Shown here: in pieces, positions 698 to 40,141 of the stretch | How positions within the stretch are numbered: the stretch's first letter is position 1 | How the letters are laid out: every line of letters starts with the position of its first letter | Origin: a virus | Taxonomy: Duplodnaviria > Heunggongvirae > Uroviricota > Caudoviricetes | DNA length: 40,141 bases | Virus record (IMG/VR): IMGVR_UViG_2534682091_000016 | Reading direction: 5' to 3' (one strand) | The notes under the pieces: model-generated | The model's database searches: none | Told to the model about the DNA's origin: nothing | The model's input: the letters and a program-made list of their open reading frames with translations, nothing else | Made by a program: the position numbers and the translations under genes

Positions 698-1060
698 GGG
701 GCTGATTCTGGATTCGACGGGATTTGCGAAACCCAAGGTGCATGCCGAGGGGCGGTTGGCCTCGTAAAAAGCCGCAAAAAATAGTCGCAAACGACGAAAA
801 CTACGCTTTAGCAGCTTAATAACCTGCTTAGAGCCCTCTCTCCCTAGCCTCCGCTCTTAGGACGGGGATCAAGAGAGGTCAAACCCAAAAGAGATCGCGT
901 GGAAGCCCTGCCTGGGGTTGAAGCGTTAAAACTTAATCAGGCTAGTTTGTTAGTGGCGTGTCCGTCCGCAGCTGGCAAGCGAATGTAAAGACTGACTAAG
1001 CATGTAGTACCGAGGATGTAGGAATTTCGGACGCGGGTTCAACTCCCGCCAGCTCCACCA
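698..1060 (+). ncRNA. ssrA: tmRNA (transfer-messenger RNA, SsrA)
   Basis: Begins GGGGCTGATTCTGGATTCGACGGG and ends ...GGGTTCAACTCCCGCCAGCTCCACCA, matching the enterobacterial tmRNA as recalled, including the tag-coding stretch and tRNA-like 3' end with CCA. Confidence 0.93.
1016..1060. repeat. 45-bp att direct repeat, copy 1 (3' end of ssrA)
   Basis: ATGTAGGAATTTCGGACGCGGGTTCAACTCCCGCCAGCTCCACCA is repeated exactly at 35716..35760. Confidence 0.9.
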
Positions 1061-1100: not shown

Positions 1101-1183
1101 TTTGGTAGTGGCGGCAAAATGGCGACAGACTTTTGCGTCCATCTTGCCTGTCGCCATCTTGAAATCATGCAAAGAGGTTTCAC

Positions 1184-23098: not shown

Positions 23099-24061
23099 CT
23101 AAATCAGAAAGTGACTCATATTAGATCTATAAATATCAGAATTTATCTTAATTTTGCTTATTGACTCAGATATTACATTCATCAGTGAATCATAGTCTTG
23201 ACTAGTGCGCAAGGGATTAGCCAATTCATTATCAACAAGTTGTTGAGTTCCTTCGCAATTAAGTCCCAGTGGATTATCAGCCTTATGCGGTACAACAGCA
23301 AAAATAGGTCTTGCCGCTTTAATAGCAAAATCCGCCTGCGTCATTGTCCCACTATTTTTTGCTGCTTCGATTAGTATCGAAACTGCTGATAAACCTACCT
23401 GGATTCTGTTGCGTTGCACAAATGACTGCTTGAATGCAGGCCTCCCTACAGGATACTCAGAAATCCAAGCCCCACCGTTAGATAAAATTTCATTTGCTAA
23501 TCTAGCATTTTGTTTAGGCTTAGCGCTCTCTAAACCATGAGCTAATACAGCAATTGTTTTAGCACCTGCCTTAAGAGCTGCCTTGTGTGCATTTGTATCA
23601 GTACCAATAGCTAGGCCGCTTACAATCACCACACCTCTTTCACAGATTTTCTTGGTAATTCTCTTCGTAATTTCTCCCCCTGCCATAGAAACTTCACGAG
23701 AACCAACAATTGCAACTCCTGGCATCTCACTAAGAATATTTACGTCCCCCTTCAAATATAACATTGCTGGGGGATTTGGCGTAATTGCTAAACAAATAGG
23801 GTATTTAGCATCTCCAAAAGGAATTGGAACAATCCCCAATGACAAATGCTTGCTCAAATAGTCTTCAGCATTATGCAATGACGCTATAGAAAAGGCGGAT
23901 TTTAAAATCCCGGCTGAATTAACACACTCAACCAATTCATATTCATCGGAAATAATATGGAATGGAATATCGTTAAATAATTTAAGCAACCCTTGTTCTG
24001 ATGCAAGTCTATCAACCTGTACCGATAGACCTAACAATATTTTGAATTGGGAAGGGTGCAT
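23099..24061 (-). CDS. DprA/Smf-like Rossmann-fold protein (accessory, candidate defence component)
   Basis: Core (GVVIVSGLAIGTDTNAHKAALKAGAKTIAVLAHGL...ISEYP...FVQRNRIQVGLS...IEAAKNSGT) aligns by eye with E. coli Smf/DprA. Start set at the Met with a GAGGAG Shine-Dalgarno, 4 nt after the PRTase stop. AT-rich codon usage. Confidence 0.7.
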   Translation of the reverse strand: MHPSQFKILLGLSVQVDRLASEQGLLKLFNDIPFHIISDEYELVECVNSAGILKSAFSIASLHNAEDYLSKHLSLGIVPIPFGDAKYPICLAITPNPPAMLYLKGDVNILSEMPGVAIVGSREVSMAGGEITKRITKKICERGVVIVSGLAIGTDTNAHKAALKAGAKTIAVLAHGLESAKPKQNARLANEILSNGGAWISEYPVGRPAFKQSFVQRNRIQVGLSAVSILIEAAKNSGTMTQADFAIKAARPIFAVVPHKADNPLGLNCEGTQQLVDNELANPLRTSQDYDSLMNVISESISKIKINSDIYRSNMSHFLI

Positions 24062-24065
24062 TATT

Positions 24066-24635
24066 TCACTCCTCATAATTAGCTGTTTCTAGTAACGCCA
24101 GTGGCAATATTGTCTTTGCGCCTGCATATCTTAACAGATAATAGCACGCCGTCATACTCCCCCCAGTTGTAGTAACATCATCAATAAGGAGAATAACCTT
24201 ATCAGCCACATTGGATGTAACTCCGATTGTTGACATATGATGTTCGACAGAACGATCTCCGCCCCCCTTATGAGCACTCACTACTGTTGTTTTTCTCTGT
24301 AATGATTGGTTATATACAGCATTAGGAAATTTTTTCGCAATATCTTGCGCTATTTTTATTAAAGCTTGAGATACTTTTCCCTCAGCATGAGAAGGAACAA
24401 TTGTTATCTCAAAGGGCACGTCGGTAAAAGCAACCCTACCAATCACATAGCTTTGGAGGCTAGAAGTTAAAAGTTGGGTAAAAATATTAACAGCCTTTGC
24501 ATACCCGGAATTTGAAGCGTCCTTCAAATCCATCATTGCCTTTGAAAGTCTATCCCCGGAACGAGGATTTCGCTCTCCTCGATATCGCCAAGGATGATAT
24601 GTACCGCAAGAGTAAATTTTGATTGGCCCCATCAT
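24066..24635 (-). CDS. Phosphoribosyltransferase-domain protein (ComF/PRTase-like; accessory, candidate defence component)
   Basis: 189 aa with the PRPP-binding signature VILLIDDVTTTGGS; co-oriented and near-abutting with the DprA-like gene. Confidence 0.7.
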   Translation of the reverse strand: MMGPIKIYSCGTYHPWRYRGERNPRSGDRLSKAMMDLKDASNSGYAKAVNIFTQLLTSSLQSYVIGRVAFTDVPFEITIVPSHAEGKVSQALIKIAQDIAKKFPNAVYNQSLQRKTTVVSAHKGGGDRSVEHHMSTIGVTSNVADKVILLIDDVTTTGGSMTACYYLLRYAGAKTILPLALLETANYEE

Positions 24636-25123: not shown

Positions 25124-25549
25124 ATGAAAAGCTTTTACGTATTAATTTTAATTCTGGTTGCAAGCTTTGTTAGCGTCCCAGTTCAGGCGGTAACAGCTAA
25201 AAACTATGAGAAAGGAACTAAAGCTCAACAGAAATCAATATCTTACCTTTCATGTGCATTCTATGGCAGTAGCACACAATTAGATCCTAGCTACACGGAG
25301 CAAGTACCTACAGCCGATATCAAGATATTACAGAAAGCAGCTTACCACGCTTACAACGATGCGCTCTCATACTTTGGTTATGAGGAACCAGATCACGAAC
25401 AACGCATAATTGATTATGCTGAATTTGTGGCGTCGCAAGAAGCTGTGTTATGGGATAAACCGGGAATGAATGGAAAGCAGGTAACACTAATTGCTCGTTC
25501 TCTCTACAATGAGAGTAACTGTAACTTGTTACTGGACTCAATTAAGTAG
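25124..25549 (+). CDS. Hypothetical secreted protein (signal peptide)
   Basis: 141 aa; N-terminal signal peptide (MKSFYVLILILVASFVSVPVQA); lone plus-strand gene between cos and the SOS module. Confidence 0.55.
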   Translation: MKSFYVLILILVASFVSVPVQAVTAKNYEKGTKAQQKSISYLSCAFYGSSTQLDPSYTEQVPTADIKILQKAAYHAYNDALSYFGYEEPDHEQRIIDYAEFVASQEAVLWDKPGMNGKQVTLIARSLYNESNCNLLLDSIK

Positions 25550-25708
25550 GAAAAAGATGGTATTTTGCCCGTAGTTTCAACCTTAATCTCCGAACCTGTC
25601 GCAGAACGGGCGTTCACTCATCAAATAAACGCCACACCTAACGCCTCACTGTACTCGTTGTTCAACCTTGCTGACGCCAGAAGCAATTTCAGACGCCAGC
25701 AACGTTTC

Positions 25709-25942
25709 TTAATGCAGCCAGCTGTCGTCTTCCCACACCTTCTGCATAATTTTCATCACTTGTTTTCTTTCTTCGTCCAGTTGCAGTCCGGTCAGTTCCA
25801 CACCGTTAGAGCTACCTTTACGGATACGGATTACCGTTTTGGGATACAGGGGGCGCAGATTGCGGTAAAGCTCGGATTCAAGGGCGTCCAGGGTAGACTG
25901 GCTAATCTTCTGCTCTTTATCGATCATTATTTCAATGCGCAT
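25709..25942 (-). CDS. DinI-family protein
   Basis: MRIEIMIDK...LDALESEL...VIRIRKGSSNGVELTG...KIMQKVWEDDSW resembles E. coli DinI; start chosen at the Met with a GAGGTG Shine-Dalgarno rather than the longest ORF. Confidence 0.75.
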   Translation of the reverse strand: MRIEIMIDKEQKISQSTLDALESELYRNLRPLYPKTVIRIRKGSSNGVELTGLQLDEERKQVMKIMQKVWEDDSWLH

Positions 25943-25952
25943 AAAAGTCACC

Positions 25953-26141
25953 TCAGCTGATGACATCCATTGAGCGGTTGTATTCGTGGGTTCTGATTTT
26001 TGCCATGAGTTCATCAGTCAATTCAGAAACCCACTGCAGAGCCAGCCCCTTCTCTTCATCACTACACTCACTAGCCGCTACAAGCTTAAGAAAAAAATCA
26101 ATGCGCTGGAGCTTCAAAGACTCCAAAAAATAGTCCTGCAT
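25953..26141 (-). CDS. Small protein, first gene of LexA-box operon (possible Tum-like antirepressor N-terminal part)
   Basis: 62 aa from the Met with an AGGAGG Shine-Dalgarno; 44 nt downstream of a perfect LexA box; stops 10 nt before the DinI-like start. Confidence 0.5.
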   Translation of the reverse strand: MQDYFLESLKLQRIDFFLKLVAASECSDEEKGLALQWVSELTDELMAKIRTHEYNRSMDVIS

Positions 26142-26294: not shown

Positions 26295-28709
26295 TTAATA
26301 CAGGTTCCGCCACTGATCATCTTCCTGCAAACGCTGGTTCCGATAGAAGATACGCAGGCCTGCTCCTGACGGAATACTGCCTCCGCGAAGGAGTAAATCG
26401 ACCTCTTTCTCGCTGCCATCAAATCCTCTGGACTTCAGCTCATACACGAGCTGCAGTCGCTGATGGTCTGTAATTCGCTGTTTGTAGTCTTTACGCCGTT
26501 TCGGTTTCACCAGGCGTAACCTTGCTGCCAGTTCCCGGCGCTCTTTTTTGCTCATACTGTGCAGGTAATCGTGCAACTCCTTGTCATCCATGCGGGTAAT
26601 GTCCGTCCTGGTATCCCCATCAGCTGATTTATCTTTCCCTTGTTGGTTCAAATTTTCAGCAAGGGGACAGTTATTGCCACGAGTCCAAGGGGCGCAAGCG
26701 CCCTGGTCGGCTGCCGCCTCCTGAACGTCAACGGCTTTACGAACCATTTTCCACTTCACTGCATGAGTGCAGATCTTGCCCTCTGCAATGGGTGACCAGA
26801 TGCCATAAATACGAATACCGTGATCGCCATAGGCGGTCGGCTCTTCGTTGATTTCATAAGCGGTTCTGATGAGGTGATATTTACGGGGAACCAGTACGCC
26901 GCCCTGCTTCATGATGTAGGTGGCAAAGCAACCAGCATCAGCTGCAGCCAGAATGGCATCAAGGCGCGGGTTATCCAGTACCGGCGCACCTGCTTTTTTG
27001 TCACCCTGTTGCCTTGCCGCCTGACCAGCCAGCAATCGCAGTTCACGGTAAGCCTGACGCCCCGGAATGCCAAAGAAGCGGAATTGCTGAACACGATGCA
27101 GAGACGCCCAGGCATTAACGTATTCAGCGTTATTACGCAGAGATTTACCCGTTTCCTTGCTGATCTCGCCAGCCAGACCACGCCCGTCAATGTTCTTACT
27201 GATATATTTCGCGATGTAGCTTGTCGGCGTTCCTTTGCGCGGGTTAATCAACTCAGACTTAAAGCGCGGCCCAGTGTTATTGCCCAGCTCCTCGCGGTCT
27301 TCACGGATGGCAAACTTACGCAGTAATGCAGTGATGGCGCGGCGATCTTTTTTGCGCATAAAACACAACAGGTGCCAGTGAACTGTACCGTCATGATGCG
27401 GCTCAGCCACCCGCACGCCATACCAGCGCAATCCGGCTTTGTGCATCGCCTTACGAAATGCAGCAAACATGCCGACCAGATAGTCGCTGCTTTGTCTTAC
27501 CGTCGAGTTTGTCCAGGTCGGGTTGGGTCTGCCGTTATTGAGCGTGGAATGGAAACGCGACGGACAGGTGATAGTGTAGAAAACGGCGCAGTCACCGCGC
27601 ATTTCCGCGATAAGCTCCAGACCTTTAACACAGGCCATCATCTCATTGCGGCGATGCGCCGGGTTGCTGCTGCTGGCGTTTACCACATCTTCCATATCCA
27701 GCGTGTCGCCGTCTTCGTTCACCAGTTCATGAGAACGGAAAAACTCCAGCGACTTACGGCGCTGCTCACGTTTATGCATCACGGCTTCATAGCTGACATA
27801 GGGGGATGCTTTTTTGCTGACCAGGCAGACAGCACGCAACTGCTCTTCCCGCCATTCGCAACGCATCTTCCATAATTTCCGATACCACCAGTCGGCACAC
27901 AACATACGCGCCAGCGAACCCGGAATGAGTTCATAGGGCACGGGTTTACGGCGGTTTCTTTTCCGACGGAGTTGCTCAAACGCAGGCGGAATAACATCCA
28001 GACGCAGGGTTTCCGCTGCCACCTTTTCCCATGTTTTGCGGATTTCTTCTGGCTTAACGTCATCGGTGGCATACAAATCACCACAAGCGGCATCAAGGCA
28101 CATGCTCATATGCGCAGCGACAAGGGGGGACAGGCGCTTCACCTGATCCTGACTCATTTCAGGCAGGATAAGCAGGCCATCCAGCCCTTCATGGCTTGCC
28201 ATAAAGCGAAAAGAAGTGGATAGCTGACAGTCGCGGACATGCTCCAGTCGTTCCAGACATGGCTTAATCGTCTCACGCAAATAGCGGGAATAAGCCTTTG
28301 GCCTGCCCAGGCTGCTGAAATATTCAATACGTTGCATCAGCGGCTTGCTGATATGGGAAGGCTGGGCGTTGACGTCAGCCAGAATGACCATGTCCGGATT
28401 AAAACGCTGCTGCTCATGCGCCAGCTTTGCCCGGCTAATGAGCTTATCCTGCTCCATTTCGCGCTGGACAGGATCACGGGATTCATTAAAGAAATAACGC
28501 TCCCAGACCTGATCACTCAGTGCCTCGCGGCGCAGTTGTTCCTGCTCGTTATCGGCAGCGTACAGAGTGATCAGGTTTGAAAGTGCAGAAACCGGCGCAA
28601 CTTCCGCCGGGTCCAGATAAGGGTTAATGGCCTTTTTTGGGCTGTTCCATGAGAATGCTGCGGCGACCTCGTTAAAGCCGCTGCAGTTGTTCATATCAGC
28701 ATGGCTCAT
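26295..28709 (-). CDS. Replication initiation endonuclease gpA (rolling-circle Rep, HUH family)
   Basis: About 800 aa with HUH motif (VHWHLL) and Tyr motif ([12 protein letters not shown]); start placed at the ATG overlapping the dam stop (ATGA); longest ORF runs to 28736. Confidence 0.85.
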
Positions 28710-29563
28710 GCACGCACTCCGTACACGGCGGAACAATCCACGCCACGCGAAGGATCAAATCCTATCCAGCAGCGCGGCCCGGCAACAGCAATGATTTCTG
28801 TTGCAGATTTACTCTCACCAGCTGCCACGCCGATGCTGCGTTTTGCCTTGATGTAGTGGTGAGTAAAATTGCGATACAGCGAACGGATCAGGGATGTGTC
28901 ACTGTTAGAAATAATGACCGGATATCCTTCTGATGACCGATGTTCAAGAACGGATGCCAGGTGATACTGGTCATCTTCAGTGAAACCATCAGTGTGATAG
29001 CCGGAAAACGTACCGTCATAAGGCGGATCGCAATACACCACATCCCCCGCGTGCAACATCGCCAGCGTTTCATCGAAGCTGGCGCAGATAAACGTTGCCC
29101 GCTGGGCTTTTACTGCAAATGCACGAATTTCTTTTTCAGGAAAATACGGATTTTTATAATTACCGTAGGGAATGTTGAAATGCCCGCTCTTGTTATAGCG
29201 ACATAAACCACGGTAACCGTGACGATTGAGATACAGGAAATATATCGCTTTCATGAAATCAGTAATTTCAGTTGAGTAATTAAACTCCTGCCTTATGTTG
29301 TAATAATCCATCTCCCTGTTTGCGTTCTCAAATAAAACTCTGGCGCGAGATATAAACGATTCACAATCAGCGGCAACCTTTTTATAGAGGTTGATTAAAT
29401 CAGGATTAATATCCGCAACCAGATAGCTGGGATAATCCGTCTCCATCATCACAGCACAGGAACCCGCGAAAGGTTCAACCAGTCGCGGGCCAGCAGGAAG
29501 ATGTTTTTTCAGTTCGGACATTATGGCAGTTTTATTTCCCGCCCATTTCAGGATGGTGCTCAT
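28706..29563 (-). CDS. dam: DNA adenine methyltransferase (Dam family)
   Basis: N-terminus ILKWAGNK...[10 protein letters not shown] and DPPY motif (VVYCDPPY); start at the ATG with a GGAGGTG Shine-Dalgarno, overlapping the upstream stop. Confidence 0.85.
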
Positions 29564-31756: not shown

Positions 31757-32389
31757 ATGTTAAACATCAGAATGGGTTCCGATACGGGAGGTAAAGCAGC
31801 TATTGAGAGGCTGCTTGCGGCTTATGGATTCACAACTAAGCAGGCATTAAGTGAGCACCTGAATGTCTCAAAAAGCACTATGGCAAACAGAGTGTTACGT
31901 GACAGCTTTCCTGCTGACTGGATAATTCAGTGCGCACTAGAAACCGGTGTTTCGTTGCTTTGGTTAGCTACAGGACAGGGAAGCATGAAAGCAGGATCTG
32001 AGACTGAAAAAAGATCTCACAATGAGAACAAACAAGCAATTAAACCGTTATCTAAACTCATAACTCCATCTATTCCTAAAGGAACCTTGGAGAATGGACA
32101 ACTCAGTATTGATGAAGAGATTTTCCTAGACCACAGCATATTACCTGCAAATTATGAAGAATCGATGTTCTTAGAAACCCCTACTGATTGTTATCTCATC
32201 GATAAATCAGTTAAACAAGTCAGCAATGGATTCTGGCTTATCAATATTGATGGAATGATTATTATTGCAAAAATTATGCGGATTCCCGGCAATAAGATTG
32301 TAGTAAATCAAGATGAAGCGTCTTTCGAGTGCTCTGCTGATGATGTGGAAGTTATTGGGCGTGCAGTCAAAGTAATAAAGAGTATCTAA
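31757..32389 (+). CDS. Immunity repressor (186 CI-like)
   Basis: 210 aa with N-terminal HTH-like region; GGAG Shine-Dalgarno; followed 3 nt later by int, as in P2/186. Confidence 0.75.
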   Translation: MLNIRMGSDTGGKAAIERLLAAYGFTTKQALSEHLNVSKSTMANRVLRDSFPADWIIQCALETGVSLLWLATGQGSMKAGSETEKRSHNENKQAIKPLSKLITPSIPKGTLENGQLSIDEEIFLDHSILPANYEESMFLETPTDCYLIDKSVKQVSNGFWLINIDGMIIIAKIMRIPGNKIVVNQDEASFECSADDVEVIGRAVKVIKSI

Positions 32390-32391
32390 AC

Positions 32392-33408
32392 ATGACTGTC
32401 AGAAAACAGCCAAACGGCAAATGGTTGTGTGAGTGCTATCCCAATGGACGCAATGGCAAGCGCGTGCGTAAGCAATTTGCTACGAAAGGAGAAGCCATTG
32501 CTTTTGAAAGCTTCACAATGGAAGAAGTGAATAAAAAACCGTGGCTAGGTGAAAAGGATGATCGGCGACGCCTATCAGAATTAATTGAGCTTTGGTATTC
32601 CCTGTATGGCCAGACACTCGCAGACCCCAAGCGCCTCATGGCGAAACTTAGAATTATCTGTAATGGTCTAGGCGACCCCATCGCCTCAGAACTGACAGCC
32701 GGTGACTTTACAAAATACCGCGAAGCACGGTTAAAAGGCGACGTTCGTAACGAAGACGGCACACTAATGTCGCCAGTAAAACCACGCACGGTGAATCTTG
32801 AGCAACGTAACCTATCATCGGTTTTCGGCACATTGAAAAAACTAGGCCACTGGTCAGCACCAAATCCTCTCGCCGGGCTGCCAACATTTAAAATCGCTGA
32901 GGGGGAACTGGCGTTCCTGACCTCGGAAGAAATTAAACGTCTGCTAGATGCCTGCGCTGATTCTCAAAACCCCAGTCTGCTTTTGATTGCAAAAATATGC
33001 CTGGCCACCGGCGCACGCTGGAGTGAAGCCGAAAACCTGCAGGGCCATCAGTTATCTAAATACCGCATCACTTATACCAAGACGAAGGGCAAGAAAAACC
33101 GCACCGTGCCGATATCTCAAGATCTGTATGACGAACTCCCCAAGAACAGAGGGAAGCTATTCACCCCGTGCAGAAAAGCCTTTGAACGGGCAGTAAAGCG
33201 AGCTGGCATCGAGCTGCCAGAGGGCCAATGCACTCACGTGCTACGTCATACATTCGCCAGTCATTTTATGATGAATGGCGGAAACATACTGGTCCTACGC
33301 GATATTCTGGGCCATGCCGATATAAAAATGACGATGATTTACGCCCACTTTTCGCCGGATCATCTTGAAGATGCAGTTACTAAAAACCCTTTATGCAACT
33401 TAAGATAG
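32392..33408 (+). CDS. int: Tyrosine integrase (P2/186-type)
   Basis: 338 aa with catalytic signature HVLRHTFAS...GH...MIYAH near the C-terminus; reads toward the distal att repeat. Confidence 0.9.
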   Translation: MTVRKQPNGKWLCECYPNGRNGKRVRKQFATKGEAIAFESFTMEEVNKKPWLGEKDDRRRLSELIELWYSLYGQTLADPKRLMAKLRIICNGLGDPIASELTAGDFTKYREARLKGDVRNEDGTLMSPVKPRTVNLEQRNLSSVFGTLKKLGHWSAPNPLAGLPTFKIAEGELAFLTSEEIKRLLDACADSQNPSLLLIAKICLATGARWSEAENLQGHQLSKYRITYTKTKGKKNRTVPISQDLYDELPKNRGKLFTPCRKAFERAVKRAGIELPEGQCTHVLRHTFASHFMMNGGNILVLRDILGHADIKMTMIYAHFSPDHLEDAVTKNPLCNLR

Positions 33409-33786
33409 AGTAACTTATGAAAATAAACTCAAATTATTTACAAATATAATATTCAGCAGGTTATCCATTCTTATTTAACTCTTCAGACTGAGATTAGATT
33501 TTATTTATAGAATAAGATAATTTCATATCACAAAAAACCTGTAAGCCCTCATCTTTGTTGTATAAAAACATAAAAGACGCCATATTCAAAAAAGTCGAAA
33601 AGCATTGCAATGCAACATTAAAAATAAGCCAATAAAAACCAGTCATTAGAAAATGAAAAAAAACAAAAACATTTTTTATCAAAGCTTCAGTCTGACTACT
33701 AGTTTGACTCTGCAATTAACTATCAAGATGATCAATATTTATTGATCATCTTGAAGTTGCCCTCAGGAAAGATGAGTATAATATTT

Positions 33787-35523
33787 CTACTCAAGAAGAT
33801 ATTCTAACTCATCTTTTATCGGGATAACTTGCTCATAAAGTCGGTGATATGACTTCCCAATTGCGCCTCTGAATTGTATTAACTTTGGTGGCTTGTTACC
33901 TATATTAATAATATGGTCTTGAGCTATACCTGGGTAGGGATCAATAAATACAATTTCAGATATACCTAACTGATAAGCTTTTTTCGCACACAGCTCACAG
34001 GGACTGGCAGTTGTATATAACCTCCCCCCCTGAACGCCAATGCCACCATATTTTGCAAGTTGTAAAAATGCGTTTTCCTCAGCATGTAATGCACGTGTAT
34101 GAACTTGATTACCTTTTTTATCTTTATCAAGATCATTATGTATATCTTTAAAACAATAAGATAAGTTCCTGCCTCTATAAATATCACCAGTTTTATCTAT
34201 CGCCCTAAAATTTAATAGTTTCTCATTAGCTTTAATTCTGAAAGAACTATTATTTCTCTCATAATAACTGTACACTTTTTCATCAAAGTCGTTCATTAGG
34301 CCATCTAGCGATCTCATAGAGCAAGGAATCTGACCGTTGGCGACATCATTCCAACCCACTGATTTTATTGAATTTTCACCATCAGTTACTACAGCTCCCA
34401 CCTGTCTAGATATACAACCAGAGTTTAATTTTACCGTATACGCAACTTGCATAACCCTTTCCATTGCAGTAGGTGTTATCAGACCAGGATGCTTCATCAG
34501 TGCGATGTACCACGCTAATTGTGCTTTTAAAATATTGTCATTATCAAATTCATTTTTTGGGTTAAAAATGTGTATATCTGATAGTTCAATGCATTTAGTT
34601 ACATTTGGATTAGTGAGATGTTTGTAAGAGTTATCACCTTTACCTGACTCTACAGAATCTATTTCCTCTATCTGCTTTTCAGAAAACTTATGTAGTTTCC
34701 GCAAATAGTTTGTTCGATGTTCATCTGGGGCATTTATTGACATTAAATGAAATGCAGAATATCTATCCTTAAAAAATTTTGCTTCATATGGATTTCTAAT
34801 AGCATCTATGACAATTAATGCGTTATCTCTTTTGCTTTTTCTTATTAATTTAATAACCCTATTAATAGTTTCCGGCAAATGAAAAACAGATTTAGGTATA
34901 AACTCTTTATCTTCAAAATCGACTTCAATACGCCCACGGCGTCTAATTGACTTACCTGCTAACTGATAGACTGAAACATATAAATTTGAGTTTATCGCAT
35001 TTAGTTCAGCTTTGAATTCCTTAGTAAATTTTCTAACTAACCTCAAAATTGATATAAATTTATTAATCGTTTTTTCATTAAGCTTCAATTCACTATTATG
35101 ATCAAGCAAATTCTCAATTACATTTTTAAATCTTGTTAAAATGAGATTATCTGAAAATACACCAAAAGTTAATACATTATCTAAATGCTCTTTACTGATA
35201 GATTTATTAGATGATAGAATAAACTCAGAAGCTTCTTCAACTGTTAACATCAAAAGATACGCTGAGATTAGGTCACTCACCTTAATTGAGTAAAAATTTT
35301 CCCAGTGATTTTCTGCGAATTTTTTAACTATATTATAACGATGGACATCCAATCCCTTGTAAAAACCCTGTAATTTACTTACATCAGGGAAGACTGTTTT
35401 TTCGTTTTCAAGAATATTAGCTGTTGTTGTGCAACCAGAACCAGTTCGACCTGTCAAACCGACTAAAATAAACTGCCCATTTTCAAGGAAAAGCTCACTA
35501 ACGAATTTTTTTTCTTTCATCAC
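33787..35523 (-). CDS. Kinase-like P-loop domain fused to CMP/dCMP-type deaminase domain (candidate defensive dCTP deaminase)
   Basis: 578 aa; N-terminal P-loop GLTGRTGSGCTT; C-terminal zinc-deaminase motifs HAEENA and SPCELCAKK; strongly AT-rich compared with the flanking prophage genes. Confidence 0.7.
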   Translation of the reverse strand: MMKEKKFVSELFLENGQFILVGLTGRTGSGCTTTANILENEKTVFPDVSKLQGFYKGLDVHRYNIVKKFAENHWENFYSIKVSDLISAYLLMLTVEEASEFILSSNKSISKEHLDNVLTFGVFSDNLILTRFKNVIENLLDHNSELKLNEKTINKFISILRLVRKFTKEFKAELNAINSNLYVSVYQLAGKSIRRRGRIEVDFEDKEFIPKSVFHLPETINRVIKLIRKSKRDNALIVIDAIRNPYEAKFFKDRYSAFHLMSINAPDEHRTNYLRKLHKFSEKQIEEIDSVESGKGDNSYKHLTNPNVTKCIELSDIHIFNPKNEFDNDNILKAQLAWYIALMKHPGLITPTAMERVMQVAYTVKLNSGCISRQVGAVVTDGENSIKSVGWNDVANGQIPCSMRSLDGLMNDFDEKVYSYYERNNSSFRIKANEKLLNFRAIDKTGDIYRGRNLSYCFKDIHNDLDKDKKGNQVHTRALHAEENAFLQLAKYGGIGVQGGRLYTTASPCELCAKKAYQLGISEIVFIDPYPGIAQDHIINIGNKPPKLIQFRGAIGKSYHRLYEQVIPIKDELEYLLE

Positions 35524-35715
35524 GTCCCACTTATGAATGTAAGAATATTCAACATATTAATTATAATTTATTAACTCATTTTGTTCTAGATACTTGATGT
35601 AATGGCGGCACTTTGGCGACGGAGCATTAAAAACGCGTAAGACGAGCAAATACAACAAAACACTAACACATTGTTTTTAAATATAAATAGCTGTTTTTAC
35701 TATACTAAAAATGGT

Positions 35716-35760
35716 ATGTAGGAATTTCGGACGCGGGTTCAACTCCCGCCAGCTCCACCA
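35716..35760. repeat. 45-bp att direct repeat, copy 2 (junction between the two elements)
   Basis: Exact copy of ssrA 1016..1060; the P4-type integrase gene starts about 165 nt downstream. Confidence 0.9.
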
Positions 35761-35925
35761 CTTTTTAGTTGTTTGAAGTTCAATGAAGTCTACTAAGCCC
35801 ACACAGCACAAGCTCTGCGGGCTTTTTTACGTCTATTGTCGTCCAGTGAGAATTGCTGAGAACTACGAGTTATGGCACCCTGAATGGGACCCACTAAGAA
35901 GGGTCCAAAAACCGAGGGTCCCAAA

Positions 35926-37155
35926 ATGGCAAAAATCGCTAAGAAGCTCACTGACACTGAAATCAAAAGCACCAAGCCAGCCGATAAAGAAATCAACTTG
36001 TTTGACGGTGATGGTCTGATTCTACGAATCGCTCCTTTGGCGAAAGGAGGCAAGAAAAATTGGTATTTCAGGTATGCAGTACCAGTGAGCAAGAAAAGAA
36101 CCAAAATGAGCCTTGGGACATATCCTCACCTTACCCTTGCAAGAGCCAGAGCCTTACGTGATGAATATCTCTCCTTTCTGGCAAATGGTGTTGATCCCCA
36201 AATCCATAACAACGATAAGGCGAAGGCATTAAAGAGTGCTACTGAGCACACTCTCCAAGCCGTAGCGCGGAAATGGTTAGATGAGAAGGTAAAGACATCA
36301 GGTATCTCACAAGACCATGCAGCAGACATCTGGCGCAGCTTAGAGAGAAATGTCTTTCCCGGTCTGGGTAATGTCCCTATCAATGAGATCCGACCTAAGC
36401 TCTTAAAACAACACCTTGATCCTATTGAGCAACGAGGCGTATTGGAAACTCTACGCCGTATCATTTCACGTCTGAATGAAATCTTCCGGTGGGCAGCTAC
36501 TGAAGAACTTATTGAGTTCAACCCGGCTGACAACCTTGGTCAAAGATTCAGTAAACCAAAAAAGCAAAATATGCCTGCCCTTCCCCCAAGCGAATTGCCA
36601 AGGTTTATGGAATCTTTGACGAATGCGTCAATCCGGTTGGAAACACGTATGCTAATTGAATGGCAATTGTTGACATGGGTTCGTCCGGGTGAAGCCGTTC
36701 GCGCAAGGTGGTCTGATATTGATACAACCAACAGCATTTGGAACATTCCTGCTGATTTCATGAAAATGAAAAAGCTTCACAAAGTTCCTTTGAGTAAAGA
36801 AGCTTTGCGCATCCTTGAATTAATGAAATCAATAAGTGGGCATAGAGAATGGGTTTTCCCCAGCATAAAAGCGCCTCTTAATCATATGCATGAACAAACA
36901 GCCAACGCAGCTATCATCCGAATGGGGTTCGGAGGCGAGCTTGTAGCTCACGGTATGCGTTCTATTGCACGAACAGCGGCAGAGGAGTCTGGTAAATTCA
37001 GAGCTGAAGTTCTTGAGGCAGCGCTTGCCCACTCGAAAAAAGATGAAATTATCGCAGCATACAATCGTGCAGAATATCTGATAGAGCGACAGAGTTTGAT
37101 GCAATGGTGGAGTGATTACGTTCAAGCTCAAAGATCAAATGCTCTGGTAGCCTAA
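35926..37155 (+). CDS. P4-type tyrosine integrase (CP4-57 IntA-like)
   Basis: N-terminus MAKIAKKLTDTEIKSTKPADKE...DGDGL is the typical P4-family arm-binding start; HGMRS and C-terminal Tyr region present; GAGGG Shine-Dalgarno. Longest ORF starts at 35884. Confidence 0.85.
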   Translation: MAKIAKKLTDTEIKSTKPADKEINLFDGDGLILRIAPLAKGGKKNWYFRYAVPVSKKRTKMSLGTYPHLTLARARALRDEYLSFLANGVDPQIHNNDKAKALKSATEHTLQAVARKWLDEKVKTSGISQDHAADIWRSLERNVFPGLGNVPINEIRPKLLKQHLDPIEQRGVLETLRRIISRLNEIFRWAATEELIEFNPADNLGQRFSKPKKQNMPALPPSELPRFMESLTNASIRLETRMLIEWQLLTWVRPGEAVRARWSDIDTTNSIWNIPADFMKMKKLHKVPLSKEALRILELMKSISGHREWVFPSIKAPLNHMHEQTANAAIIRMGFGGELVAHGMRSIARTAAEESGKFRAEVLEAALAHSKKDEIIAAYNRAEYLIERQSLMQWWSDYVQAQRSNALVA

Positions 37156-37193
37156 GTATCAGAATAGCTAATATAATCCTGAAGGTAAAGAAA

Positions 37194-37610
37194 ATGGAAA
37201 CCCTATTCAAAGTTTTTGAAAAATTTAGTTCCAGACCACTTTTTTTTATTTTTTTCGGACTCTCACTTTGTGAATTTTTTCAGAAACAATCTGTTCTGAT
37301 GAATCCATCAGCAGATAACATCGCGAAATTATTCGCAGCCATGATATTAGTTGTTTTTTTTACTTGGGGATTTGAATGGCTAATCTTCAAGTTCAATGTA
37401 AACCTTGAACCTCATGATCAAGGCGATATTGGACCAACAATTGGAACGGCTACTTTAGCTGTATACTTAGTTTATGCCTTTCACTTTCTCAGTGAAAATC
37501 CTGAAGCATTAAATTTAAAGTTATTAACTAACTCTGGCTTTATATACAGCACAACTCTATTATTATTCTCATTAGAATGCATGAAGCTTAGAAGACTTAA
37601 ACAAAAATAA
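37194..37610 (+). CDS. Hypothetical integral membrane protein (about 4 TM helices)
   Basis: 138 aa with four hydrophobic stretches; AT-rich; between the P4-type int and the two-component-like module. Confidence 0.5.
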   Translation: METLFKVFEKFSSRPLFFIFFGLSLCEFFQKQSVLMNPSADNIAKLFAAMILVVFFTWGFEWLIFKFNVNLEPHDQGDIGPTIGTATLAVYLVYAFHFLSENPEALNLKLLTNSGFIYSTTLLLFSLECMKLRRLKQK

Positions 37611-37682
37611 ACAACATCATTGTGATGATAAATATAAAATAGGCATGGCGAAAAAAAAATCACCACGCCTAAAATATAATAA

Positions 37683-39449
37683 TTATGGTAGCATCATTGA
37701 TACATAATCCACACCAATCCTTGAGCTATACTGAGACGCTATAGCCTGATATCTTTCTGCATAACCAGTTCTCAGTTGAGATTTAAGTTTGAGTCGGACA
37801 GGAACATTTTGCACGTTGCCATCCATATTACTTAAAAACACGGCAGAAATAATATTTTTTTCTTCGCCATCAACTGTTGTTCCATGATTCAACACCACCA
37901 TATAATCAACAACAGGAAGCGTTTTATCCCCTTCGAAAATAGAGAGATATTTTCTTTGATTTTTATGCATTACATATATATATTTCGAATGTTCAGCAAA
38001 TGGCAATGCTTTACTCTGACTGGCGTTAAAAAGCTCCAGAACTTTAATGAGCCTGTGCGGACTTAATCTTACATGGTGAGGGTCGTTACCCTGAGTAGGA
38101 ACCAAATCACATGCCGCAGATACACATAAATACCATTTGTTCGACTCTGTATCAAAGAAAATAGTGCCAGTAGAAATATGACCATCTTCAAAATTCTTTG
38201 AAGACAAATTCATATTTAAAGCATGATACATTTCGTGATAAGTATCATTATTTGATGGCAGATCCATTTTTGAAGAGCAATATTGGAGCAATGCAGCAAC
38301 TCCGCTGTTAGCGTATTCATTTGAATAGCTATCAAAAACACTTTTGATAAATTCATCCAGCGTATTATTATTTTTAAGTCTTTGATAAAGCTCTTCTGAT
38401 AAATTACCAAATACAAAGTCAATATTTCTACATCTAATATCAGGCGAGTCTGATTTTAATATCTCATTTAACCACGCAGCTTGACCGTAATGATCGTTAG
38501 CCAAATGATTTACAAAAGATAAAGCCTCAGCTTCGATTGCATTCTGAATTTCAGATTTTATTAACTGATAATAAGATGGTTTCCATTCAATGAGAGAATC
38601 ATTGAGAGTTTGCCAAATCCTATCTCCATCGTTTTCATGATCATCTTGAACCTTATGAAATAGGGAGACAAAGATATTACCACATTGAATCCATTTTACT
38701 CCGCTTTCATCACCCCGAATGACATTGCCAGATGTGTTGCTAGAAATAATTGCATTTCTAGACACAGCATATTCTGCAATCATTTTTGCAATGAAGTTTT
38801 TATCCTTTTGATCCTCCAACACAGCATCATCATGTATTAATCTTTTAATTCTTCTACAAGGCTTACTGTCTTTAATATAGGCTATTGTTTCATCTCTTGT
38901 GAGAGCTTTATTACCATTATCATTTAAGTTCGGTAATACAACGTCTTCCCAATAACTTTGGACATCTTCATTATCGTAGTCAATGATCAAGCTGTTGATA
39001 TCCAGAGCACCTTTGAGAGTCGATGATATCTGCATCCAAACCGTTTCTAAATTCTCTCTAGTATATATTACAATCATATTTAAATGATCGGAGTCTTTCA
39101 AATCTTGTAATAGTTTAAGTGTTTTATCAGGTGCATTATTATCAAGATGATAATCTACAATAATAAGATCTGATTTTCTAATCCGATCCACATCGAAATT
39201 AACAGAACCATTGTCAACATCACAAATCATATTTTTAGATTGAAAAAAGCTCTCAAGAGTAGCGGCTCGTTTAGATGAGTCAATTTTGTTGTAGTCTAAA
39301 TCAACTTCGTTATTCAACGCCCTGATTGATTCAGAATACGTCAGAAAATCGTCATCAATCATGACAACGGAACGAATTGCATTTTCGCAGAAAGTTTTCT
39401 GGACAAGAGAATTATAATTTGCCACTGTCATATTAGAACTCCACTCCAT
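37683..39449 (-). CDS. Receiver (REC)-like domain protein with large uncharacterised C-terminal domain
   Basis: 588 aa; N-terminus has receiver hallmarks in order (VVMIDDD, LIIVDYHL, IVIYTRE, downstream Lys); remaining 450 aa unrecognised; start overlaps the upstream ATPase gene by 17 nt. Confidence 0.6.
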   Translation of the reverse strand: MEWSSNMTVANYNSLVQKTFCENAIRSVVMIDDDFLTYSESIRALNNEVDLDYNKIDSSKRAATLESFFQSKNMICDVDNGSVNFDVDRIRKSDLIIVDYHLDNNAPDKTLKLLQDLKDSDHLNMIVIYTRENLETVWMQISSTLKGALDINSLIIDYDNEDVQSYWEDVVLPNLNDNGNKALTRDETIAYIKDSKPCRRIKRLIHDDAVLEDQKDKNFIAKMIAEYAVSRNAIISSNTSGNVIRGDESGVKWIQCGNIFVSLFHKVQDDHENDGDRIWQTLNDSLIEWKPSYYQLIKSEIQNAIEAEALSFVNHLANDHYGQAAWLNEILKSDSPDIRCRNIDFVFGNLSEELYQRLKNNNTLDEFIKSVFDSYSNEYANSGVAALLQYCSSKMDLPSNNDTYHEMYHALNMNLSSKNFEDGHISTGTIFFDTESNKWYLCVSAACDLVPTQGNDPHHVRLSPHRLIKVLELFNASQSKALPFAEHSKYIYVMHKNQRKYLSIFEGDKTLPVVDYMVVLNHGTTVDGEEKNIISAVFLSNMDGNVQNVPVRLKLKSQLRTGYAERYQAIASQYSSRIGVDYVSMMLP

Positions 39450-39818
39450 TGAACTGGATCACAAAATTAGCGCCATCTTTTATTAAATAGTTATCGCCTT
39501 CATCAGGTTCTGAATACCATATTTTATGATGTGCAACAGCAAGGTTTTCTCGACATAGATACAGACCTACCCCATGTCCATTTGCTCTTTTGCTATAAAA
39601 TAGTTCAAATAGTCGCGGGATATCATCGGTATCAATTGCCGGACCAGAATTTGCTATGATAACCAAAGAATTCACAAAACCAATCTTTATGAGCCTATTA
39701 TTTGACAGACTGACCCAATACATTGCATTGTTGATAATATTAGTAAAAACAGGATAGATCCTTGATGGTATATCTGTTATTGCGATTTGCTTAAACTCTT
39801 CACTAAATTCAATAGTTA
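39433..39818 (-). pseudogene. Histidine-kinase-type ATPase (HATPase_c) gene, 5'-truncated by IS3 insertion
   Basis: N-box (VFTNIINNAMYW), G1 (ANSGPAID) and G2 (GHGVGLYL) boxes present; frame is open to the IS3 boundary with no start codon in native sequence; the apparent start of the track ORF lies inside the IS3 terminal repeat. Confidence 0.6.
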
Positions 39819-40141
39819 TGATCTTACCCAGCAATAGTGGACACGCGGCTAAGTGAGTAAACTCTCAGTCAGAGGTGACTCACATGACAAAAACAGTATC
39901 AACCAGTAAAAAACCCCGTAAACAGCATTCGCCTGAATTTCGCAGTGAAGCCCTGAAGCTTGCTGAACGCATCGGTGTTACTGCCGCAGCCCGTGAACTC
40001 AGCCTGTATGAATCACAGCTCTACAACTGGCGCAGTAAACAGCAAAATCAGCAGACGTCTTCTGAACGTGAACTGGAGATGTCTACCGAGATTGCACGTC
40101 TCAAACGCCAGCTGGCAGAACGGGATGAAGAGCTGGCTATC
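39819..40141 (+). mobile_element. IS3 insertion sequence, left end (partial)
   Basis: Terminal sequence TGATCTTACCCAGCAATAGTGGACACGCGG... followed 65 nt later by the orfA start, matching IS3 as recalled. Confidence 0.8.
39884..40141 (+). CDS. insA: IS3 transposase OrfA (partial, continues past window end)
   Basis: Translation MTKTVSTSKKPRKQHSPEFRSEALKLAERIGVTAAARELSLYESQLYNWRSKQQ... matches IS3 OrfA as recalled. Confidence 0.85.
   Translation, partial: MTKTVSTSKKPRKQHSPEFRSEALKLAERIGVTAAARELSLYESQLYNWRSKQQNQQTSSERELEMSTEIARLKRQLAERDEELAI

Follow-up and report, generated by a model that had tools for sequence, protein, structure and literature searches.

We analysed a window of 40,141 nt (IMG/VR record IMGVR_UViG_2534682091_000016), and the minus-strand gene between its positions 33787 and 35523 is a real member of a known family of bacterial immunity proteins that destroy dCTP, a building block of DNA, upon viral infection. 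The best explanation, to which we assign a probability of about 93%, is that this is a single-gene nucleotide-depletion dCTP deaminase of the Tal/AvcD family, carried as cargo between int and attP of a complete prophage of the P2 family (Fels-2/186-like) that sits in ssrA. The relevant features are:

1016..1060, plus strand: attL, the 3' end of the intact tmRNA gene at 698-1060 (tmRNA search, exact repeat)
1109..1156, plus strand: second attP arm, on the attL side (TGGCGGC at 1109, TGGCGAC at 1120, inverted GTCGCCA at 1150)
32392..33408, plus strand: prophage tyrosine integrase, 338 aa, convergent with the deaminase gene (ORF, RefSeq, relatives)
33409..33786, no strand: AT-rich non-coding spacer of 378 nt from the int stop to the deaminase stop, part of the cargo allele
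33787..35523, minus strand: anti-phage dCTP deaminase gene, stop codon at 33787-33789 (ORF, NCBIfam, PADLOC, RefSeq)
33931..34473, minus strand: C-terminal zinc deaminase domain, about residues 350-530
34531..35478, minus strand: N-terminal P-loop kinase-like domain, about residues 15-330, bounds approximate
35524..35600, minus strand: cargo-specific 5' leader and promoter region, about 77 nt (read from sequence)
35601..35715, plus strand: int-proximal attP arm between cargo and core (TGGCGGC at 35603-35609, TGGCGAC at 35614-35620)
35716..35760, plus strand: attR copy of the ssrA 3' end, 45 nt (exact repeat of 1016-1060, partial tmRNA match)

In the lysogen, the deaminase would be made from its own promoter, read from the att side toward int, and would be kept inactive. 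Infection by another phage, with its shut-down of host transcription, would switch the enzyme on; its zinc deaminase domain (His479/Glu481, Cys508/Cys511) would convert dCTP, dCDP and dCMP to deoxyuridine nucleotides, the dC pool would be emptied and the DNA replication of the invading phage would stall. That dC nucleotides are depleted, that cells are protected from phages, that both domains are needed and that activity is linked to a stop of transcription is known from experiments on close relatives, and the allele in the window may be expected to behave like them.

Family membership and domain architecture

The minus-strand ORF is intact and comprises 578 codons, if counted from the GTG given in the program-made ORF list. 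The codon right after this GTG is an ATG (35520), which gives 577 aa as annotated in RefSeq. Since both the RefSeq protein and the U09 gene of Tal et al. have 577 aa, this is the likelier product and translation probably starts at the ATG rather than the GTG. The sequence-only reading had described an AT-rich ORF of 578 aa; ORF, coordinates and low GC content hold, and only its start has to be moved by one codon. The GC content is 0.329 in the deaminase ORF, 0.316 in the gap between int and att and 0.519 in the rest of the prophage. A chance ORF is excluded, since 1.7 kb are open at 33% GC and the HMM matches have E-values of 1.4e-14, 1.8e-126 and 8e-145.

The protein scores 422.5 bits against the NCBIfam equivalog NF041025 "anti-phage dCTP deaminase" (cut-off 400; E = 1.8e-126) and covers this profile in full (positions 1-437 of 437). 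It also matches PADLOC dCTPase (PDLC02373; E = 8.1e-145) and Pfam dCMP_cyt_deam_1 (E = 1.4e-14). RefSeq WP_000660070.1, which differs from the window protein at one residue, is named anti-phage dCTP deaminase, and many of the more than 4,600 homologues bear the same name. The assignment to the defensive dCTP deaminases, which had been made without any database search, is therefore borne out by NF041025, PADLOC and RefSeq alike. The reference to Tal et al. that had been given with it is also correct, as that study validated the genes from E. coli U09 and AW1.7 (bioRxiv 10.1101/2021.04.26.441389).

Of 5,426 complete E. coli genomes, 20 have the entire gap between int and att; these come from various hosts and countries, and the locus is 96-99.8% conserved among them. 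In a second E. coli allele group 15 of 577 residues differ from the window protein, none of them within the motifs. The dN/dS between the window gene and this second allele is 0.16, i.e. the gene is under purifying selection. Judged by its sequence, the deaminase is almost certainly functional.

Both parts of the proposed fusion of a kinase-like and a zinc deaminase domain are present in a protein of more than 350 aa that has kept its zinc motifs. All motifs named in the earlier reading lie where they had been placed: in the 577-aa numbering, GRTGSGCTT occupies residues 24-32, HAEENA 479-484 and SPCELCAKK 506-514. The zinc deaminase domain contains H479-A-E481 and P507-C508-x-x-C511 together with the conserved Cys369 and Cys400. 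The N-terminal domain has the P-loop GLTGRTGSGCTT (aa 21-32) and a Walker B-like VIDAIRNP (Asp239). The pattern GxxxxGK[ST] of a catalytic kinase Walker A is not found there, as the sequence reads GRTGSGCT with Cys30 at the position of the lysine. The absence of this lysine had been noticed before, yet it is a family-wide trait that does not set this gene apart: all relatives checked, down to 38% identity, have Cys or Ser at this position, and the catalytic and P-loop residues are invariant over the same range. In the profile searches of the deaminase protein, AAA_18 and the dephospho-CoA kinase model both stayed below their cut-offs. The domain with this lysine-less GSGC loop would be required for activity; most likely, it binds nucleotide as a sensor or regulator and does not transfer phosphate.

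The AlphaFold model is mediocre (mean pLDDT 64, with P-loop and active-site segments below 50), and a Foldseek search with it gave no match at E <= 0.001. The predicted fold is thus to be taken as supportive only.

The slot between integrase and attachment site

The prophage enclosed by the two att repeats measures 34.7 kb, and its structural genes are about 96% identical to those of phages Cartapus and 500465-1. The distance from the int stop (33408) to the att repeat (35716) is 2,307 nt and agrees with the 2.3 kb given in the sequence-only reading. The accompanying statement, that int normally adjoins att in such phages, also holds for the relatives: int lies only about 120-150 nt from att in Fels-2 and eight others. 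The slot is empty in Fels-2, L010, L011, L013-L016, L020 and L077, and it contains unrelated genes in Cartapus/RE-2010, L007, L004/L008, L009, L018, L027, ZYS9073 and B20127. Deaminase homologues are found in this slot of related phages and also on an ICE. Most close relatives of the phage lack the gene. A conservation of gene and spacing in all relatives, as expected of an ordinary phage gene, was not seen among the ssrA-integrating P2-family phages compared. With its low GC content, its position inside the att repeats and a slot that is empty or otherwise filled in relatives, the deaminase gene is accessory cargo in the int-att slot of a P2-family phage, as had been proposed.

Not all of the 2.3 kb belong to this cargo. 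The bulk does, but the att-proximal part of about 115 nt (35601-35715) is an attP arm that is conserved whatever the cargo. Since these last 115 nt carry the paired repeats of the conserved arm, the cargo ends at about 35600. The distance between the paired repeats and the core is constant in all relatives whose integrase is at least 78% identical, irrespective of an empty or filled slot, and phages with an integrase of 68-71% identity have a different repeat at the place of the TGGCGGC/TGGCGAC pair. Matches of 73-84% to the attP arm are also present beside ssrA in many other E. coli genomes without the deaminase. It seems reasonable to regard the paired repeats as putative arm-type binding sites of Int.

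The same repeats, written as GYCGCCA-N4-GYCGCCA, are the only element common to the upstream regions of the deaminase homologues, and they were considered as a regulatory or RNA motif. This was rejected, because the fixed distance to the att core with or without cargo, the occurrence at the other end of the prophage and the covariation with the integrase assign the element to attP and not to the deaminase.

At its other end, the cargo allele includes the AT-rich spacer, which accompanies this deaminase allele in the 20 E. coli genomes, was found in no others and contains a perfect palindrome of 15+15 nt at 33723-33754. Deaminase homologues of 69-76% identity have only about 22-31 nt in place of these 378 nt. 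RefSeq annotates no gene in the spacer. A 73-aa ORF at 33494..33715, which has no family match and is likewise unannotated in RefSeq, was taken as a chance ORF of AT-rich DNA.

The gene, its mechanism and this type of hotspot have all been published before. Therefore, the finding is correct but ordinary and matters little past annotation, and what is new here is anatomical detail only, such as the cargo boundary at about 35600 and the retained attP arm. These side results are more useful, as they show precisely where insertions lie in the int-att slot of P2-family phages that integrate in ssrA. The unannotated low-GC genes in the slots of relatives are reasonable candidates for undescribed defence genes; ten proteins encoded in such slots gave no significant Pfam or PADLOC match except for a SEC-C motif. 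The candidates include the genes of a 401-aa protein in Cartapus/RE-2010, of proteins of 424 aa in L007, 518 aa in L008 and 506 aa in B20127, and of a pair of 375 and 397 aa in ZYS9073. Together with Shosta, which the prophage also carries, the lysogen has at least two prophage-borne defence systems, which is of relevance when its susceptibility to phages is to be predicted, e.g. for phage therapy or typing.

Control of the enzyme and other readings of the gene

The distance from the start codon to the att repeat is 192 nt, made up of 115 nt of attP arm and about 77 cargo-specific nt. A candidate promoter can be discerned by eye in the latter (-10 TATAAT at 35565..35560, weak -35 TAGAAC at 35588..35583). 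In an automatic promoter scan, no sigma-70 site in the leader satisfied the criteria of the tool.

It is possible, but in our view unlikely, that the gene encodes the toxin of a type III toxin-antitoxin system like AvcID, in which a labile small RNA, encoded upstream on the same strand, inhibits the deaminase until transcription is shut off; this reading departs from the best explanation in the off-switch only. AvcD proteins have the same two-domain architecture and the same lysine-less P-loop as the window protein. AvcI (DifV) is located directly 5' of avcD and co-transcribed with it, and the cognate upstream regions of three homologues, one of them from an E. coli ETEC strain, suppress toxicity (Hsueh et al., bioRxiv 10.1101/2021.03.31.437871). 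T7 mutants that escape the E. coli enzyme, which map to gp5.7, also point to a sensing of transcription shut-off. Since AvcI homologues have no sequence similarity to each other (bioRxiv 10.1101/2021.03.31.437871), the fact that no AvcI was recognised at the window locus proves little. Several observations speak against an RNA of this kind, however. Only about 77 cargo-specific nt are available upstream of the gene, compared to 152-174 nt for AvcI, and homologues of 72-76% identity that occupy this slot do not share the leader sequence. The predicted folding of the whole 192 nt is not more stable than that of shuffled sequence (z = +0.79), and an Rfam search over 33300-35900, at the gathering threshold and at E <= 1, returned nothing relevant. 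Moreover, the functional construct of the AW1.7 homologue had only 83 nt 5' of the ATG.

Since promoter and leader adjoin and may overlap the attP arm, and a separate AvcI-like RNA would hardly fit, one could also imagine that a leader transcript across the arm is itself the labile inhibitor, or that binding of Int, IHF or excisionase at the arm gates expression. We consider this quite improbable. If it were true, arm-gated expression would make the activation of an immunity enzyme depend on whether the prophage is integrated.

There is very little to be said for a housekeeping or phage-replication dCMP deaminase of the T4 Cd or ComEB type, which would supply dUMP for the lytic growth of the prophage. 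Lytic phages do encode dCMP deaminases, and the nearest solved structures by sequence are the dCMP deaminases of T4, a cyanophage and human. However, the window protein is 3-4 times longer and has an obligatory kinase-like domain, and against the ComEB equivalog (TIGR02571) it reaches 37.1 bits, far from the cut-off of 219.45, with a match of residues 476-530 only. The gene is also missing in most close phage relatives and has relatives on an ICE. Within the prophage it is low-GC cargo near one end and belongs neither to the replication nor to the late operons, and its close homologues act by depleting dC pools and protect from phages.

It is just as hard to believe in a polynucleotide-editing deaminase (APOBEC-like or similar to the toxins MafB19/DddA) that would mutate phage DNA or RNA instead of depleting nucleotides, since no Pfam match of that kind reaches its curated cut-off, all of them overlap the generic HAE..PCxxC core, and the highest sequence identity (21-26%) is to dCMP deaminases. 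A decaying, non-functional remnant that sits passively at the prophage edge, as the unusually long 378-nt non-coding tail and the result of the promoter scan might suggest, is scarcely conceivable in view of a 577-codon frame that is intact in DNA of 33% GC, a full set of catalytic and P-loop residues, the dN/dS of 0.16 and the 96-99.8% conservation of the locus in 20 genomes.

Comparison with known systems

A defensive dCTP deaminase in the int-att slot thus remains the best explanation, and both its position and its enzyme type have known counterparts. A recent study lists the region between integrase and att as a minor defence hotspot of P2 phages, which accounts for 3% of P2 defence systems (NAR 2026, PMC13586616), and the tmRNA locus is defence hotspot #9 of E. 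coli, an integration hotspot that carries defence genes (PMC10121019). The window likewise has a defence gene between int and att, in this case at ssrA. The main texts of PMC13586616 and PMC10121019 do not mention a dCTP deaminase at the int-att slot, and the passages of PMC13586616 used here do not give the exact insertion point, which in the window lies between int stop and paired arm repeats.

Among the experimentally studied relatives, the E. coli U09 gene (IMG 2677870675) is the same gene at the same place. It has 577 aa, is listed as "validated experimentally" and protects E. coli MG1655 from several phages (Tal et al., bioRxiv 10.1101/2021.04.26.441389, later published in Nat Microbiol 2022). 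Within the first 399 nt of the U09 construct (Table S5 of Tal et al.) one finds the ssrA att repeat in reverse complement, the pair of arm repeats and the same leader as in the window, ending ...CATAAGTGGGAC. The identity of this fragment is 97% to the second E. coli allele group and 92% to the window over att repeat and leader. U09 is an allelic variant of the window gene, and from the matching allele group we infer a protein identity of about 97% between the two.

The dCTP deaminase of AW1.7 (576 aa) is the mechanistically characterised member. During T7 infection, dCTP, dCDP and dCMP vanish and dUMP accumulates; the P-loop mutant G29A/C30A loses defence, as do zinc-site mutants; T7 escapers map to gp5.7, an inhibitor of the host RNA polymerase; and the defence range is wider than that of U09 (Tal et al., bioRxiv 10.1101/2021.04.26.441389). 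AW1.7 is 72% identical to the window protein, with 76 matches in the N-terminal 103 aa, and the 576-aa group to which it belongs 71-73%. AW1.7 shares the architecture and the GLTGRTGSGCTT P-loop of the window protein, but it has a different genomic context and works, as mentioned, with a short upstream region.

The AvcD-AvcI system (DcdV-DifV) has the same fusion of a P-loop kinase-like and a dCMP deaminase domain with a Walker A motif without lysine, where Ser52 of AvcD takes the place of Cys30. AvcD from VSP-1 of V. cholerae deaminates dCMP and dCTP and needs both domains, and its S52K variant showed that the P-loop motif is functionally required (Hsueh et al., bioRxiv 10.1101/2021.03.31.437871). 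The enzyme becomes active when an infecting phage shuts off transcription (Hsueh et al., bioRxiv 10.1101/2021.03.31.437871; PMC10511110). AvcD is controlled by the small RNA just upstream, whereas at the window locus none was recognised and there is little room for one.

More distant are the dCMP(/dCTP) deaminases of T4 (Cd), cyanophage S-TIM5, human and PBCV-1. They share the zinc fold and the HAE..PCxxC chemistry, and Cys369 and Cys400 of the window protein align with Cys19 and Cys49 of T4 Cd. However, these proteins are metabolic enzymes of 135-190 aa that do not possess the kinase-like domain.

The deaminase gene and its identity

The window contains an intact tmRNA gene, and the 45 nt that close this gene recur exactly at the far end of a 34.7-kb element, whose structural genes are approximately 96% identical to those of the P2-family phages Cartapus and 500465-1. 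The CI repressor and integrase genes are located near the right end of this prophage:

698-1060: tmRNA gene, intact
1016-1060: 45-nt 3' end of the tmRNA gene (attL copy)
31757-32389 (+): CI repressor gene
32392-33408 (+): integrase gene (int)
33787..35523 (-): deaminase gene
35716-35760: exact recurrence of the 45 nt (attR copy)

The gap from the int stop to the att repeat comprises 2,307 nt and has a GC content of 31.6%, compared to 51.9% in the remaining prophage. The only long ORF in this gap, which the sequence-only reading had placed there, was confirmed on the minus strand and has 578 codons counted from GTG; since RefSeq annotates a 577-aa form, residues are numbered here from the ATG that follows. 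The motifs quoted in that reading were all found, namely GRTGSGCTT (residues 24-32), HAEENA (479-484) and SPCELCAKK (506-514).

Pfam assigns residues 354-526 to dCMP_cyt_deam_1 (1.4e-14) and yields only sub-threshold P-loop matches for the N-terminus. The PADLOC model "dCTPase" matches at 8e-145, and the NCBIfam equivalog NF041025 ("anti-phage dCTP deaminase") matches end-to-end with 422.5 bits (curated cut-off: 400). More than 4,600 homologues were obtained by database search, many of which bear this very name. When 33 of them (58-89% identity) were aligned, no variation was seen in the P-loop GLTGRTGSGC, the Walker B-like Asp239 or the residue pairs His479/Glu481, Cys508/Cys511 and Cys369/Cys400. 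The same residues are kept in viral-contig relatives down to 38% identity, in which the position of the Walker A lysine is occupied by cysteine (n = 10) or serine (n = 1) and never by lysine.

The only pointers to an enzyme that edits DNA or RNA are sub-threshold Pfam matches. The idea that the gene is a decaying remnant conflicts with its unbroken frame, its retained motifs and a dN/dS of 0.16. A role as metabolic dCMP deaminase can be excluded from the score of the housekeeping ComEB model of NCBIfam (37 bits, cut-off 219), the additional domain, the patchy occurrence and the phenotypes in the literature.

Cargo between integrase and attP arm

The sequence-only reading had proposed to check whether int adjoins att in related prophages, and this is indeed the case: Fels-2 has 118 nt between the int stop and the annotated attP, and in eight genomes (Xenorhabdus, Plesiomonas, Photorhabdus, Franconibacter, Shewanella and others) the att core starts 134-150 nt past int. 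In other relatives, this slot is filled by unrelated low-GC genes, at least seven genes or gene pairs, without a significant match in Pfam or PADLOC.

Unrelated slot genes of relatives (L numbers: sequences retrieved for comparison)
Cartapus and RE-2010; 401 aa; L001:3219-4424
Citrobacter genome; 424 aa; L007:7022-8296
Klebsiella phage phi4.1 and a Klebsiella plasmid; 518 aa; L008:7017-8573 (= L004:3172-4728)
[Erwinia] mediterraneensis; 343 aa; L009:7014-8045
Shewanella genome; 294 aa; L018:5839-6723
Second Shewanella genome; pair, 327+203 aa; L027:7022-8753
E. coli strain; pair, 375+397 aa; L166:3614-5990
Another E. coli strain; 506 aa; L167:3633-5153

Most of these genes read in the direction of int and begin no more than approximately 10 nt from its stop, which makes joint transcription with cI-int probable in the lysogen. 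Such slot genes could plausibly be defence genes that have yet to be described.

Since the slot is empty or otherwise filled in relatives, the deaminase is accessory cargo rather than part of the phage core, though it is a recurrent occupant. Alleles with 69-76% identity to that of the window occupy the same slot, convergent with int, next to integrases that are 91-95% identical. This suggests, as judged from comparing L098-L112, L115 and L168 with the window, repeated capture or swapping of homologous deaminase cassettes rather than simple co-divergence. A 39%-identical homologue in the slot of a more distant phage is co-oriented with int, opposite to the arrangement in the window. Another homologue lies among the conjugative-transfer genes of an integrative and conjugative element (ICE) in E. 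coli LF82 (NZ_CP082771.1, 513315-515063; L169), so the family travels on ICEs besides P2-like phages. A survey of thousands of P2-like prophages assigns 3% of P2 systems to the integrase-att interval, which it describes as a minor hotspot of defence (NAR 2026, PMC13586616), and the tmRNA locus is a recognised defence hotspot of E. coli (PMC10121019).

The last approximately 215 nt before the att core were aligned for the window and 14 relatives. In these 15 sequences, the att-proximal 115 nt or so (window 35601-35715) are conserved with or without cargo, and this arm alone was matched beside ssrA in many E. coli genomes without the deaminase. The arm opens with paired direct repeats, which directly follow the int stop codon in empty-slot phages and the cargo in filled ones:

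35603-35620: TGGCGGC-N4-TGGCGAC
1109-1126: the same repeats at the other prophage end, with an inverted copy at 1150 (to 1156)

The TGGCGRC repeats keep a fixed distance from the att core at both prophage ends, and at this position, phages with an integrase of only 68-71% identity have another repeat, GATCCAY..GTCCAC. We infer that the paired repeats are putative arm-type Int binding sites, and that cargo would enter in the interval of a few nucleotides that separates the int stop from the arm, with the repeats marking the boundary. The cargo proper would then extend from 33409 to approximately 35600 and consist of a 378-nt AT-rich tail, the deaminase gene and a leader of approximately 77 nt:

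33409-33786: AT-rich non-coding tail that separates the stops of int and the deaminase gene
33723-33754: perfect 15+15-nt palindrome, TCAAGATGATCAATA/TATTGATCATCTTGA, 32 nt past the deaminase stop

The tail was found only with this deaminase allele (20/20 genomes), whereas divergent alleles have only about 22-31 nt at this position. No T-run follows the palindrome, and the tail that bears it may serve as terminator or operator or be a remnant.

Further features of the prophage and its surroundings

The same prophage carries a second defence system, Shosta, in a low-GC stretch (0.38-0.43):

23099-24635 (-): Shosta
24066-24635 (-): ShosT, PRTase domain (PADLOC 2.7e-18)
23099-24076 (-): ShosA, DprA-like (PADLOC 8.5e-70; Pfam DNA_processg_A 7.9e-60)

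If the 813-aa ORF at 26295-28736 encodes the replication endonuclease gpA, as assumed here, Shosta occupies the gpA-portal hotspot known from P2-like phages. Beside it, this variable region also contains two low-GC ORFs (141 and 131 aa; 25124-25960, +), for which neither Pfam nor PADLOC gave a match.

Directly past the attL-side attP arm, a 43% GC stretch contains a 160-aa ORF (1184-1666, +), which corresponds in position and length to a Cartapus gene annotated as "putative exonuclease protein" and weakly matches the PADLOC candidate system PDC-S48 (1.8e-07). This ORF may represent cargo on the opposite side of attP.

At the other end, a second island is inserted in tandem at the same att repeat, where ypjA follows in other strains:

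35884-40141: tandem island
35884-37155: P4-type integrase with an Arm-DNA-bind_3 domain, followed by AT-rich genes
37683-39449 (-): 588-aa protein with an N-terminal Response_reg_2 receiver domain
39433-39834 (-): ORF with a HATPase_c domain, overlapping the 588-aa gene

The last two gave no PADLOC match. Directly past the att repeat, Rfam gave a partial match to IsrM, an sRNA of a Salmonella island (35751-35828, +; 53 bits, gathering score 376, E 3.9e-13), with a terminator-like hairpin following (35810-35824). Rather than an IsrM gene, this match probably reflects sequence that is conserved downstream of ssrA-type att sites.

Proposed mechanism and comparison with known systems

In the lysogen, the deaminase would be transcribed from the att side, where a candidate promoter was located by eye (perfect TATAAT at 35565-35560, weak -35) that an automatic promoter scan did not call, and the enzyme would be kept inactive. 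Infection by a second phage would shut down host transcription and release the deaminase, which would then deaminate dCTP, dCDP and dCMP and starve the invader of DNA synthesis. By analogy with experiments on close relatives, we have high confidence that chemistry and trigger carry over to this allele. An off-switch by an RNA like AvcI, the small inhibitory RNA of V. cholerae, is possible but unsupported here, since an RNA of its size (150-175 nt) does not fit outside the attP arm, the leader has no unusual structure (z = +0.79), Rfam revealed nothing for an RNA antitoxin, and the functional construct of the E. coli AW1.7 deaminase contains just 83 nt upstream. Useful side results are the insertion point beside the attP arm, the unannotated slot genes of relatives and the question of how the Cys-P-loop clade is kept off.

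The whole gap is present in 20 of 5,426 complete E. coli genomes (96-99.8% identity), chromosomal every time. The name "anti-phage dCTP deaminase" is annotated there in 19 of the 20 records, and both records inspected have the order int, deaminase, att. WP_000660070.1 and the window protein are identical except for one residue.

In the paper on defensive dCTP deaminases that the sequence-only reading had cited, Table S1 lists the 577-aa enzyme U09 as "validated experimentally" (Tal et al., bioRxiv 10.1101/2021.04.26.441389). The first part of the U09 construct, shown in Table S5, includes the reverse-complemented ssrA att repeat and, after it, the same leader as at window 35524-35715; this fragment is 97% identical to a second E. 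coli allele group and 92% to the window. Since U09 is validated and its construct carries this att repeat and leader, the locus has already been tested by experiment. Gene, mechanism and this type of hotspot are already known from literature and RefSeq annotation, and the proposal of a defensive dCTP deaminase carried as cargo is supported.

The AW1.7 enzyme has 576 aa, and the 576-aa group is 71-73% identical to the window protein. Within minutes of T7 infection, dCTP, dCDP and dCMP are gone and dUMP is up in the presence of this enzyme, defence is abolished by G29A/C30A as well as by zinc-site mutations, and T7 escapers are mutated in gp5.7, an inhibitor of the host RNA polymerase (Tal et al., bioRxiv 10.1101/2021.04.26.441389). 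The G29A/C30A exchange falls in exactly the GSGC P-loop present in the window protein. AvcD of V. cholerae, described independently, has the same two domains with Ser52 at the Walker A lysine position, is inactive as S52K, accepts dCMP and dCTP and is inhibited by AvcI, which is encoded upstream (Hsueh et al., bioRxiv 10.1101/2021.03.31.437871); it is activated after phage-induced transcription shut-off and AvcI decay (Hsueh et al., PMC10511110). The sequence-only reading was therefore right that the Walker A lysine is missing, yet this absence is shared across the family, AW1.7 and AvcD included, and does not single out the gene in the window.
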